Below, one piece after another: positions 29,486 to 39,591 of a stretch of DNA of 64,000 bases. Numbering within the stretch: the stretch's first letter is position 1; the number at the start of each line of letters is the position of its first letter. The stretch spans positions 40,936 to 104,935 of the forward strand of contig JAHPZJ010000020.1 in NCBI GenBank assembly GCA_019058245.1, in the 5' to 3' direction. Origin of the DNA: Promethearchaeota archaeon (GTDB lineage: Archaea > Asgardarchaeota > Lokiarchaeia > Sigyniarchaeales > SOKP01). Below the pieces are notes generated by a model. That model made no database searches and was not told where the DNA came from. It saw nothing but the letters and a program-made list of their open reading frames with translations. The translations under genes were made by a program, and so were the position numbers.

Positions 29486-30439
29486 TTAAGAATAATTTAA
29501 CATTTTATTAATTGGAATTAAGGCTTTTTTTGCTATATCAGAAGGAACCTTGACCTCAAAAGCTTGGTCATCAAGGTTCTTGAGGATATATTCAATAAGC
29601 TCGAGATTATGCTTTTTCATATTATAACAAATCAACTTGTCTTTAACTGAGTAAAAATTCTTGTTTTGAAAATCTTGAGTTAAGCGTACTCTGAAACCTT
29701 CCTCAGTGCCAATAAGAAACTTGTTTTCATCATTAGAACTATTTTTTACCCTATTATACATTTGTGCAGTTGACCCTACAAAATCTGCTAATTCTCTCAC
29801 AGCTCTAATACATTCTGGATGAACAAGTAATTTTGTATGAGAGTATTTTTTTTTTGCTATTTCTATATCTTCTGGTCTAATTTGTGAGTGCACATAACAA
29901 TGACCTTCTTCGGGCATTTTTATACATTTTATCCCAGATTTTTGTTCTGTATAGTCAGCTAAATTTGCATCGGGACCGAATAAAACTGAGGAAACATTAA
30001 ATTCTTGACTAATTTTTTCGACAATCATAATTGAATTTGATGAAGTGCAACAAATATCAGATTCAGCTTTTACAGCTGCTGTTGAATTAACATATACAAC
30101 AACAGGTAGATCTGGATATTTATTTCTAAATTCCCTAACCATTTCAGGTGTGAGATAAGCCGCCATAGGACAGCAAGATTCATAATTAGGGATTAAGATA
30201 TGTTTATCTTGATTTACAATCGATGCAGTTTCAGCCATAAAATCAACCCCTGCGAATACTATATAATTATTTGCCTTCTTTTTTGCTGTACGAGATAAAC
30301 CAAGTGAATCTCCTACATAATCCGCGATTTCTTGAATTTCTATTGGTTGATAATAATGAGCTAGAATCGTTACATCATTTTCTTTCTTTAAGCCCAAAAT
30401 ATCTTCTTGTAATTGTATTGTATTCATATTAATAGTCAA
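29486..30439 (-). CDS. nadA: Quinolinate synthase
   Basis: ILAHYYQ, VGDSLGL, GVDFMAETA, CPMA, VYVNS, CTSSN, GHCYVH, HPEC, GST, ICYNMK. Confidence 0.95.
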   Translation of the reverse strand: MTINMNTIQLQEDILGLKKENDVTILAHYYQPIEIQEIADYVGDSLGLSRTAKKKANNYIVFAGVDFMAETASIVNQDKHILIPNYESCCPMAAYLTPEMVREFRNKYPDLPVVVYVNSTAAVKAESDICCTSSNSIMIVEKISQEFNVSSVLFGPDANLADYTEQKSGIKCIKMPEEGHCYVHSQIRPEDIEIAKKKYSHTKLLVHPECIRAVRELADFVGSTAQMYNRVKNSSNDENKFLIGTEEGFRVRLTQDFQNKNFYSVKDKLICYNMKKHNLELIEYILKNLDDQAFEVKVPSDIAKKALIPINKMLNYS

Positions 30440-30530
30440 AAAAATAATTACATGTAATATGAATAAAAGTTCAAATTAAAATAAGTTATTTTGTAATAAA
30501 AAAAAAAATAGAAAAAAAAAATTAATAAAG

Positions 30531-31397
30531 TTATATATTAAAGATTTCTCTAAATTTGTTCTGATCAACAATATTTGCCGCTAAGATATTAGCCATGGCG
30601 CTAATACCTGCTTGATGTCCTTGTTTGTTAAAACCAGCACAGAAATCACCACAGACATAAACATTTTTAAATTTATGGATAACCATAAGCTCAAATGTTA
30701 AAAGAAAAACTTTTACATTGGTAATTACTCCAAAAACTCCAATTTTCACTTCTTTATGGGAACTCCCTGCATTTTTAATAACGGTCTCCAGTACATGTTC
30801 GAGATCTGTCTCATCGAAGGAACTAAGACTGTTTGAATTTAATATAACGTTAAATTCATGATGTTTTTGTATTAATTCATCCAAGGGGGATATAAATTTC
30901 GCTCCATAAGTACCTTTAATACAATGAGGTCCAAAAAGATCCATTTCACCCTTTTGTGATTCATCTGTTTGGTCATGCCAATCCCTTAGATGTATGCATT
31001 GATATTCAACTCCGCTCATCTCATTTAAATTGGATTCAGATGCTTTTATCATTAAATCTCGTATAAATTGGGTTAGTTTATCTCCTTCCCATACTCTTCT
31101 AATCTCATCATAATCAACATGAACTCTATGCCTATAATGCTCTAGGATATGATGATAAGATAAAGCTCCTCCAATCAATTCACTACTGGCATTATTCTTC
31201 AACCATGATATAAATTGATCGATATTTGCATCACTTACATTCCTATTCTGATTTAAAAAATACTCCATCCATCTATTTGATACTTGATCATACCCTAATT
31301 TTAGCGTATCTTCTGATGTGGGGTGTATATTTAACGGTTCAATAAAGTCATTCTGAACCGAACAAGTTATGATAATATTTAATTTTTTATTTTCCAA
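30531..31397 (-). CDS. Atypical isochorismatase/nicotinamidase-fold protein lacking the catalytic triad
   Basis: SVQNDF, RDWH, GPHCIKGTYGA and GVITNVKV align to PncA motifs, but Asp is replaced by Ser and Cys by Lys. Confidence 0.75.
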   Translation of the reverse strand: MENKKLNIIITCSVQNDFIEPLNIHPTSEDTLKLGYDQVSNRWMEYFLNQNRNVSDANIDQFISWLKNNASSELIGGALSYHHILEHYRHRVHVDYDEIRRVWEGDKLTQFIRDLMIKASESNLNEMSGVEYQCIHLRDWHDQTDESQKGEMDLFGPHCIKGTYGAKFISPLDELIQKHHEFNVILNSNSLSSFDETDLEHVLETVIKNAGSSHKEVKIGVFGVITNVKVFLLTFELMVIHKFKNVYVCGDFCAGFNKQGHQAGISAMANILAANIVDQNKFREIFNI

Positions 31398-38768: not shown

Positions 38769-38901
38769 TTGATTTTTTTTGACTTTTTCTTCTTTAGGAT
38801 ATTAAAATAAATATTATCAAAAATTATTGATTATGTTACTTTTCATTCAGTTTTAAAGGTCTGCGAAATATTCTAATTAGATAAAAAGATTGGAGATTAA
38901 T

Positions 38902-39591
38902 ATGGTAAATTTTTATGGTGTTGAATTAAAGACTGAAAAAAATATTGTTCTAAATAAATATGATGCACTTTTAGTTATTGATATGCAGAATGATTTTCTC
39001 CCTGGGGGATCTATGCCCGTAGAAGGAGGTGATTCAATAATAAAGGATATTAATGATGTAATTGAAATATTCGTTGATGGTATTGTAGTACACTCTCAAG
39101 ATTGGCATCCTCCAAATCATCTGTCCTTTGCAAGTAATCATCCGAATAAAAATCCAGGAGATGAATTCAATTCTAAAGATGGGGCAATAGGACCAATTTT
39201 ATGGCCTGATCATTGCGTTGAGAATACATACGGTGCACGGTTTCATAAAAAAGTTAATACAAAAATGATTAATAAAATAATCCAAAAAGGCATGAATCCA
39301 GAAATAGATAGTTATTCCGCTTTTCTTGAAAATGATAAAAAAACTGAAACGGGTCTAAGGGAATATCTTAATTCCTTTAACATAAAGAGAATTTTCATAT
39401 GTGGTTTGGCATTAGATTATTGTTGTTATAATACTGCTATGGATGGTGTAAACTTTAATTTTGAAACTTTCTTTATGATAGATCTAACTAAAGGTATTGA
39501 TGAACCGCCTGGAAATATAACAAATTCATTGAAAAAAATGAGTACAAACGGAATAAAGTTTGCAACAAAAAATAGTCTTAAAATCTGGTAA
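38902..39591 (+). CDS. pncA: Nicotinamidase/pyrazinamidase
   Basis: VIDMQNDF, QDWHP, WPDHC, IQKG, DSYSAF, GLALDYC; full D-K-C triad and metal ligands; ATG 38902 follows GGAG. Confidence 0.93.
   Translation: MVNFYGVELKTEKNIVLNKYDALLVIDMQNDFLPGGSMPVEGGDSIIKDINDVIEIFVDGIVVHSQDWHPPNHLSFASNHPNKNPGDEFNSKDGAIGPILWPDHCVENTYGARFHKKVNTKMINKIIQKGMNPEIDSYSAFLENDKKTETGLREYLNSFNIKRIFICGLALDYCCYNTAMDGVNFNFETFFMIDLTKGIDEPPGNITNSLKKMSTNGIKFATKNSLKIW

Follow-up and report, generated by a model that had tools for sequence, protein, structure and literature searches.

The subject of this account is a six-gene locus in a 64,000-nt stretch of contig JAHPZJ010000020.1 (the window, numbered here from its first letter), from an archaeal genome that the names of homologues and the titles of records place in Promethearchaeota/Lokiarchaeia. 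Two soluble leucine-rich repeat (LRR)-TIR proteins, L1 and L2, are encoded in tandem; divergently from them runs a gene for a WD40 protein with two transmembrane (TM) helices (WD40-2TM), which overlaps a gene for a nicotinamidase-fold protein that has lost its catalytic triad (the pseudoenzyme); and the two outer genes are pncA and nadA. We find that WD40-2TM/pseudoenzyme (module A) and L1–L2 (module B) are each conserved as a two-gene unit, and that the evidence supports a linkage between them. The best explanation overall, whose biochemical steps we infer, seems to be that these are cooperating, separable modules of a relay signalling NAD+ breakdown, probably in conflict or immunity; taken as a whole chain it has, by a rough estimate, somewhat less than an even chance of being right. 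The source genome (76% complete) is labelled G000 below, and other G-, L- and P-numbers denote the genomes, loci and proteins compared with it.

The LRR-TIR pair: a catalytic-type TIR beside a pseudo-TIR

Among 400 Asgard genomes searched, L1 was followed by L2 in all 15 that had it, spread over three genera of its own family and reaching another family, and the pair is a conserved two-gene unit. The wider LRR-TIR family is multi-copy and found across much of this Asgard order (matches in 23 of 41 relatives), mostly as solitary genes, and a soluble member (P0068) is carried by Promethearchaeum syntrophicum, a cultured organism. Direct searches of Pfam, PDB sequences and PADLOC gave no match to the TIRs of L1 and L2, whereas family scanning (TIR_2 matches 18 of 31 aligned members) and folding allowed them to be recognised. 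The predicted model of the L2 TIR (predicted local distance difference test, pLDDT, 82.8) has AbTir as its best Foldseek match (7uxu; E 5.7e-5, target-normalised TM 0.76), followed by the TIRs of SPARTA, RPP1 and SARM1, and the modelled C-terminal domain of L2 has the flavodoxin-like TIR fold.

L2 has about 22 LRRs, a TIR at residues ~578–715 and a helical tail. By its motifs it is a catalytic-type TIR, with FISH (the betaA F-x-S), the BB loop CEQDL and S-x-D-C-x-x-E656 (Glu codon at 38331–38333); the catalytic-type Glu is present in all 17 L2-type sequences, and the EE surface has diverged. Four residues before the Glu, where cyclising TIRs have Trp or another aromatic, stands Asp652, and L2 therefore falls outside the TIRs expected to make cyclic ADP-ribose (cADPR) isomers, which have an aromatic residue (usually Trp) there; cyclisation is governed by this alphaC Trp (10.1101/2022.05.07.491051). 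L1 has about 10 LRRs with a hypervariable concave face, an LRR N-cap carrying an inserted helical repeat (two copies of ~90 residues here, one in G182/G183), a TIR at residues ~572–700 and, again, a helical tail. Its TIR is without the FISH motif, 11 residues of the BB loop and the Glu, and has kept the DL..LSRELG.EF surface; Glu and BB loop are absent from 14/14 L1 TIR sequences and from 11/11 full-length aligned L1 proteins, a pattern that marks L1 as a conserved pseudo-TIR. The preliminary description of this DNA had spoken of paired LRR-TIR genes, and as a conserved pair they stand, only L2 being of catalytic type.

The active site of TIR NADases is formed by two TIRs across a BB-loop/EE interface, one supplying betaA, the BB loop, alphaB, alphaC and the Glu, and the other the adenine-holding EE surface (betaD, betaE, alphaE) (10.1101/2022.05.07.491051; PMC8635717). 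With columns of 80% or higher conservation among 23 solitary LRR-TIR paralogues as reference, we found 14 that are kept by L2 alone, the Glu among them, and that all fall within betaA, the BB loop and alphaC, and nine kept by L1 alone, eight of which come after alphaC in the stretch DL..LSRELG.EF..F...I..K. This partition has a Fisher p of 1.8e-5, or 4e-4 without the BB-loop deletion, for columns and sequences that are not independent and relatedness that is uncorrected. Given the two-TIR architecture of the site, the simplest reading would be that its halves were divided between L1 and L2 after duplication, making the L1:L2 heterodimer obligate and non-polymerising; a sensor/executor heterodimer with a split NADase site is, judged from the motifs, a fairly likely arrangement.

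The LRRs suggest which partner would be the sensor. Mean entropy in L1 is 1.48 at concave LRR positions, 0.82 at other exposed positions and 0.41 in the TIR, and in L2 it is 0.83 at concave LRR positions vs 0.85 at other exposed ones; the variability of the L1 concave face is what one would expect in a sensor. The ratio of non-synonymous to synonymous substitution (dN/dS) stays below 1 even at concave LRR positions (up to 0.79), which supports higher variability there and not positive selection.

Three more TIR genes are present in G000 (G000:C30:142205-143878, C23:84677-86578 and C13:72968-73717): two are solitary LRR-TIRs that retain the two TIR surfaces, and the third encodes a short TIR protein.

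A WD40 membrane protein and a predicted pseudo-nicotinamidase partner

Of 58 non-redundant pseudoenzyme loci, 53 have WD40-2TM immediately upstream, an arrangement that extends to Helarchaeota (the other five comprise three without upstream DNA, one TIR fusion and one unclear arrangement), and these genes also are a conserved two-gene unit. The WD40 part is a seven-bladed propeller, matching CIAO1, Ski8 and G-beta with Z 33–34 and a root-mean-square deviation of 2–3 Å over ~290–330 residues; in the model it is succeeded by a helical bundle, a beta-rich (beta-sandwich-like) domain and the two TM helices. The hydrophobic helices fall at residues ~755–777 and ~783–806 (about 31489–31644), ahead of a basic tail, and there is no N-terminal hydrophobic segment. 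In fold searches with a 701-residue WD model, propeller matches filled all lists, thus leaving the C-terminal ~300 residues uncovered; ESM Atlas feature searches with the C-terminal part of WD40-2TM and with the L1 insert gave no match, which is no argument for the novelty of either.

The pseudoenzyme shares the QNDF motif and the D-x-H...H metal ligands of the PncA/isochorismatase family, and alignment to solved nicotinamidases places Ser13, Ser188 and Lys229 where these have the catalytic Asp, Lys and Cys. (These equivalences follow HMMER alignments to solved structures; with MAFFT, the pseudoenzyme came out misaligned to PncA beyond the lid.) Lys229, at the nucleophile position, is invariant, and the metal ligands Asp139, His141 and His158 are kept, the first invariant and the other two at least 90% conserved. 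Invariant polar residues are numerous round the site (H93, H136, D139, D142, N189, T226, K229, C249 and H261).

A complex of the two proteins was modelled with an ipSAE interface score of 0.73, vs 0.00 for the best of three controls; 58 of 80 solved complexes reach the mark used, as do 2 of 110 mismatched pairs, and these counts are only roughly valid here because we used our own alignments. At least 75% of contacts are common to the runs, and partner pLDDT is 86 or more. In the predicted interface, the lid of the pseudoenzyme metal site (residues 140–164) and strand 183–189 sit on the top face of the propeller. The pairing of the two, proposed earlier, has thereby gained a predicted interface, and a physical complex is very probable; the contact between lid and propeller would offer a route from ligand occupancy to the membrane protein.

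Beyond the Asgard archaea, the closest relatives of the pseudoenzyme, in bacteria and amoebozoans, are mostly Lys-type isochorismatase domains joined to a TCAD9 kinase, in some cases together with a DSP phosphatase (57 of 62 long homologues). Their place N-terminal to kinases and phosphatases is a typical sensor-like position. This family (P0077–P0214) includes L217 from Eudoraea adriatica and transcripts of Flabellula and Luapelamoeba; isochorismatase and nicotinamidase are unmentioned in the main text of the eLife paper on ternary systems (PMC7159879).

Linkage of the two modules

The pseudoenzyme was found in 24 of the 400 genomes, and both modules at this site in 11 (in G216 on split contigs). 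Elsewhere they meet in other ways. L1–L2 is directly downstream of module A, on the same strand, in L138 and L141; a different LRR-TIR is directly upstream in G186, G187 and G189, and three LRR-TIRs in L232; TIR genes are one or two genes downstream in L121, L160, L167 and L234; and in P0070 a Glu-bearing TIR_2 domain is fused to a Lys-type pseudo-nicotinamidase, followed by a gene for DUF4062, a TIR-like NADase (10.64898/2026.05.01.722283). SIR2-like genes are near module A in L147 and L158, pncA adjoins it in G193 and G029, and a NUDIX gene of ADP-ribose (ADPR) type in G037. Outside the window layout, about eight of 15 placements have a TIR within two genes of module A, vs 0.6% as the base rate for this genome; assuming a base rate of 10% gives a binomial p of 3e-5, or 9e-4 for six of 13 leaving out L138 and L141, values that overstate the significance, as the null is uniform while TIR, SIR2 and repeat genes cluster in variable islands, and that relatedness weakens too. 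The layouts fall on different branches of a quick pseudoenzyme tree (this and the pncA tree below have Shimodaira–Hasegawa-like (SH-aLRT) support only). A linkage of module A with TIR genes and with pncA, far above that predicted by gene-order chance and in several independent layouts, is thus supported.

Some further occurrences may be recorded here. The TIR-pseudoenzyme fusion (P0070; L096:56-1372) sits on 2-kb metagenome contigs. Near module A are also a small-GTPase-LRR-TIR protein (L160:1399-2955), a TPR-CHAT (caspase-like) protein in Helarchaeota (L099:4374-7127) and a TIR protein (L167:456-1946) whose N-terminus, starting with a CFVISPIG motif, has no Pfam match and presumably resembles nucleoside deoxyribosyltransferase-like domains. 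The window itself encodes a SIR2-like and TPR protein (14871–17354, + strand, 827 residues) that has two more paralogues in the genome and relatives adjoining module A in L147 and L158. L197, with a full module A and L1–L2, is labelled as an Ignavibacteria metagenome-assembled genome, and L198/L213 as Odin/Thorarchaeota; their sequences point to mis-binned or mis-labelled Lokiarchaeia DNA.

pncA, nadA and a variable chromosomal slot

The window pncA scores 187.8 bits with NF008623 (cut-off 174) and has the triad and the metal ligands. A pncA gene stands beside L2 in three genomes only (G000, G024 and G216), and the housekeeping pncA of all three is a second copy at another place. In the pncA tree the window copy clusters (SH-aLRT 99) with the pncA of G193, a genome of another genus where that gene comes immediately after the pseudoenzyme, and the housekeeping copy of G000 falls apart from it. 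On this tree it is an extra, module-linked lineage, and its origin as a local duplicate of the housekeeping copy is ruled out; so is a housekeeping nadA/pncA pair split by an insertion, since the housekeeping pncA lies elsewhere. nadA is single-copy in nearly all relatives and occupies the same chromosomal site where both modules are absent, which rules it out as a module gene: it is a resident housekeeping neighbour.

The site is a variable slot, between nadA and a gamma-carbonic-anhydrase-like gene. Most often it holds a gene for a 557- or 575-residue NUDIX protein; unrelated TIR genes occupy it in some genomes, and one clade has modules A and B there. The NUDIX protein (L083:7581-9308, L066:6815-8527 and most nadA loci of the genus) has an unrecognised N-terminal part of ~430 residues and a NUDIX domain that best matches NadM-Nudix/NrtR ADPR-type NCBIfam models; in the loci seen, it and module A are mutually exclusive in the slot, and it was not found in G000 (76% complete). 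Traces of deletion are seen as well, in a 38-residue pseudoenzyme remnant in G021 (L068, G021:C143:3573-3683) and a 68-residue piece like the L2 helical tail upstream of WD40 (L144:5241-5447), hinting at earlier presence and loss of modules. Beside nadA a 536-residue protein is conserved (window 26612–28222, + strand) that combines a hydrophobic segment at its N-terminus with LRRs and a conserved Loki-type domain; relatives of it flank module A in G186, G187 and G189.

It follows that the six genes, first proposed as a single system to be checked by synteny across Asgard genomes, do not form a fixed set: each module also occurs alone, pncA is at the site in three genomes only and nadA is resident. 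What survives of that proposal is two conserved pairs linked above chance; nadA drops out of it.

A proposed relay and its alternatives

The relay draws on gene order, motif partition, TIR fold, LRR variability and recurrent linkage, together with the modelled WD40–pseudoenzyme interface; from these we infer the L1:L2 dimer, its NADase activity, the ligand, the output and the immune role. A ligand would be sensed by L1 at the variable face of its LRRs. Activation would then bring Glu656 and the BB loop of L2 onto the EE surface of L1 to make one composite NADase site, and because L1 is without a BB loop and the EE surface of L2 has diverged, assembly should stop at this dimer and not run on into a polymer, giving a bounded signal and not wholesale loss of NAD+. 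As Asp652 replaces the alphaC Trp, the predicted output is linear ADPR and nicotinamide, not a cADPR isomer. PncA, local or housekeeping, would turn nicotinamide into nicotinate, and the pseudo-nicotinamidase, on the propeller of the membrane-anchored WD40-2TM, would bind a pyridine product.

In PncA itself, the metal coordinates the nitrogen of the ring, and the amide is attacked by the Cys. In the pseudoenzyme the metal site could still hold the ring nitrogen, with Lys at the nucleophile position facing a carboxylate and the acidic Asp gone; loss of the Asp and a Lys in place of the Cys would suit a carboxylate, and our best guess for the ligand is therefore nicotinate (or quinolinate). Occupancy would move the lid that touches the propeller, and so switch the membrane protein. 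If nicotinate is the ligand, the co-recruitment of PncA is explained, and we propose free pyridine as the common factor among the neighbours of module A (TIR, SIR2, DUF4062, PncA and NadA). That the pseudoenzyme reads an NAD-derived pyridine we regard as evenly balanced. The most specific version, an NTPase-free, TM-free paired LRR-TIR receptor with a split NADase site, signalling through the nicotinamide half of NAD+ (as nicotinate) to a dead-nicotinamidase/WD40/two-TM complex, is at present rather doubtful.

Several observations weigh against the relay, and some favour instead independent conflict-type modules that share a variable slot through defence-island clustering: L1–L2 would then be a self-contained sensor and NADase depleting NAD+ (abortive infection or dormancy), module A something separate, and pncA a mere recycler of nicotinamide. 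Each module is found alone: module A is without a TIR neighbour in G018, G208, G022, G215, G181, G163 and L099, and L1–L2 without an adjacent module A in G035, G182, G183 and G189. In G193 and G029 (78–81% complete) the query used found no TIR of this LRR-TIR family, and most genomes with both modules lack an adjacent pncA. In relatives the slot carries unrelated TIR genes (G004, G023) or the NUDIX gene, and most LRR-TIR genes of the family are solitary. Synonymous distances (dS) differ between the modules within one genome pair, and the modules thus recombine separately. PADLOC gave no TIR-system match; nor is there an evident NAD link in the TCAD9 fusions of pseudoenzyme homologues. Independence accounts less well for a linkage that survives rearrangement onto one strand (L138, L141) and involves different TIR paralogues and a fusion, or for a module-linked pncA lineage common to different genera; we think it unlikely, if the strongest competitor of the relay.

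Module A might, on the other hand, have no immune role and instead belong with the housekeeping functions of nadA, pncA and NUDIX, as a metabolic sensor for the NAD precursors nicotinate or quinolinate; its TIR neighbours would then be incidental or would only modulate NAD flux. In two clades it immediately precedes nadA in the same orientation, and the adjoining pncA in G193 and G029 and NUDIX gene in G037 would fit this, as would strong purifying selection (dN/dS 0.08–0.13); all genes of the locus are in fact under purifying selection at a stable chromosomal site, which counts against the relay. A patchy distribution (24 of 400 genomes), loss from most genomes of the genus (with the G021 remnant), TIR or SIR2 neighbours that are commoner than pncA, and the lack of a DNA-binding domain in module A make a purely metabolic role improbable. 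A little less probable again is an active metalloenzyme using Lys-based chemistry (Schiff-base or lyase-type, for example) on a TIR product, with WD40-2TM as its membrane scaffold. The many invariant polar residues round the site and the Lys in the consensus of bacterial and amoebozoan homologues speak for it, and against the relay it may be said that Lys229 could fill the pocket or do new chemistry instead of facing a carboxylate; all three canonical catalytic residues are nonetheless replaced, the domain occupies the typical sensor position before kinases and phosphatases, and the metal-site lid is buried in the predicted interface. The two-module relay remains, on balance, the account we prefer.

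Layout of the locus and support for the assembly

All six open reading frames (ORFs) were recovered, on re-reading of the window, at the positions first described for them (Table 1), and with them the GTGA overlap of L1 and L2, the 11-nt overlap of WD40-2TM and pseudoenzyme, an intact pncA, the two TM helices and the missing triad.

Table 1. Genes and intergenic region of the locus, in window coordinates
Feature	Position	Strand	Remarks
nadA	29486–30439	-	above NCBIfam NadA cut-off; single-copy housekeeping quinolinate synthase
pseudo-nicotinamidase, nicotinamidase/isochorismatase fold	30531–31397	-	triad replaced, metal ligands kept, ~75-aa helical insertion
WD40-2TM	31387–33906 (ORF); probable start ATG 33840	-	propeller, helical bundle, beta-sandwich-like domain, two TM helices
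divergent intergenic region WD40-2TM/L1	33841–33984	.	~144 nt, AT-rich
L1, soluble LRR-pseudoTIR, presumed sensor	33985–36369	+	start may be ATA 33994
L2, soluble LRR-TIR, presumed catalytic executor	36366–38768	+	TIR motifs including E656, predicted fold
pncA, intact accessory second copy	38890–39591	+	above PncA family cut-off; D31/K133/C178-179

Contigs of other sequencing runs span the junctions nadA/pseudoenzyme, WD40-2TM/L1, L1/L2 and L2/pncA (their studies hold possible source samples and are not fully independent), and G024 has the identical layout on a single contig; because of these bridging contigs and the G024 layout, an assembly artefact is ruled out. The divergent gap measures 144–153 nt from the probable WD40 ATG. 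A sigma-70 promoter scan of it, a model ill-suited to archaea, stayed at chance level.

Non-AUG starts are probable at two places in the window, where an AGGTGA site is followed 5 nt later by ATA, ATT or ATC: at 33994 (L1) and at 40996–40994 (a thiF-like gene, - strand, whose ORF has no ATG, GTG or TTG in its first 125 codons). Orthologues of L1 in this genus have ATT, ATA or ATC at the start, and L138 and L141 have ATG there; genome-wide, ATA is about as common as ATG at the AGGTGA-spaced start position (8 vs 6, n=39).

Significance and comparison with known systems

LRR-TIR receptors are characteristic of innate immunity in animals and plants, their prokaryotic antecedents are unclear, and the present locus comes from the archaeal group closest to eukaryotes. 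The L1/L2 pair is a natural experiment on composite TIR active sites, and module A a concrete candidate, predicted to bind, for a reader of the nicotinamide side of NAD+ cleavage, which is thought to be discarded in known TIR systems. If the relay is real, it would represent a second-messenger logic not yet described in TIR systems and, in the lineage nearest eukaryotes, a prokaryotic counterpart of the paired NLRs (nucleotide-binding LRR receptors) of plants; it would also give a function to the altered nicotinamidase domain found in kinase fusions of bacteria and amoebae. The family member in cultured P. syntrophicum makes the family testable.

The preliminary description knew of no archaeal system with this layout, and a literature search of incomplete coverage likewise gave us no paper that treats this locus or LRR-TIR proteins of Asgard archaea. 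Judged by its genes, the locus would be a variant of TIR/NAD+ signalling, with a layout that is new in the literature searched. On the features examined, it is outside Thoeris, NLRs and Toll-like receptors, and the pseudoenzyme is outside PncA.

The closest likeness in logic may be to the type of Thoeris that has a TM-Macro ThsA effector: a TIR enzyme makes an NAD+-derived molecule, and a separate ligand-binding domain coupled to TM helices would read it (here by prediction). Unlike Thoeris, with its ThsB and ThsA (PMC11249213; 10.1101/2022.05.07.491051), the locus has no ThsA SIR2-SLOG or Macro domain (six genes, Pfam, NCBIfam and PADLOC); its TIRs are of TIR_2 type, fused to long LRRs and arranged as an active/dead pair without the alphaC Trp; and the candidate reader is a nicotinamidase fold bound, as predicted, to a WD40 propeller. 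AbTir, SARM1 and SPARTA share with L2 the fold, the catalytic Glu, the BB loop and a site expected at a two-TIR interface between BB loop and EE surface (BE interface), but they are homo-oligomers in which each TIR has both surfaces, whereas here these are apparently divided between two genes.

For the pair as such, the best parallel is plant RRS1/RPS4, whose TIR heterodimer (PDB 4c6t) is among the fold matches of the L2 TIR model: in both, LRR/TIR proteins are encoded as a linked pair, with a non-catalytic partner that has an extra integrated domain and a variable surface, and another that acts as executor. The differences are that L1 and L2 have no NB-ARC or NACHT domain, that their TIRs are C-terminal, that the genes are tandem and overlapping and not head-to-head, and that the motif partition points to an asymmetric BE interface and not to the symmetric AE one. 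More generally, NLR and STAND proteins (plant TNLs, Avs) are set apart by their NTPase: no NTPase family matched L1 or L2, in which the LRRs run straight into the TIR. Toll-like receptors have the same order, LRRs and then a C-terminal TIR, and may form heterodimers, but L1 and L2 have neither a signal peptide nor a TM helix between LRRs and TIR, their last LRR is joined to the TIR by a short charged helix, and one of the TIRs is of catalytic type. The pseudoenzyme, finally, has the fold, QNDF motif and metal ligands of the PncA/isochorismatase family, with Ser/Ser/Lys in place of the Asp-Lys-Cys triad, and differs from its TCAD9 kinase-fused relatives in standing alone, coupled to WD40-2TM.

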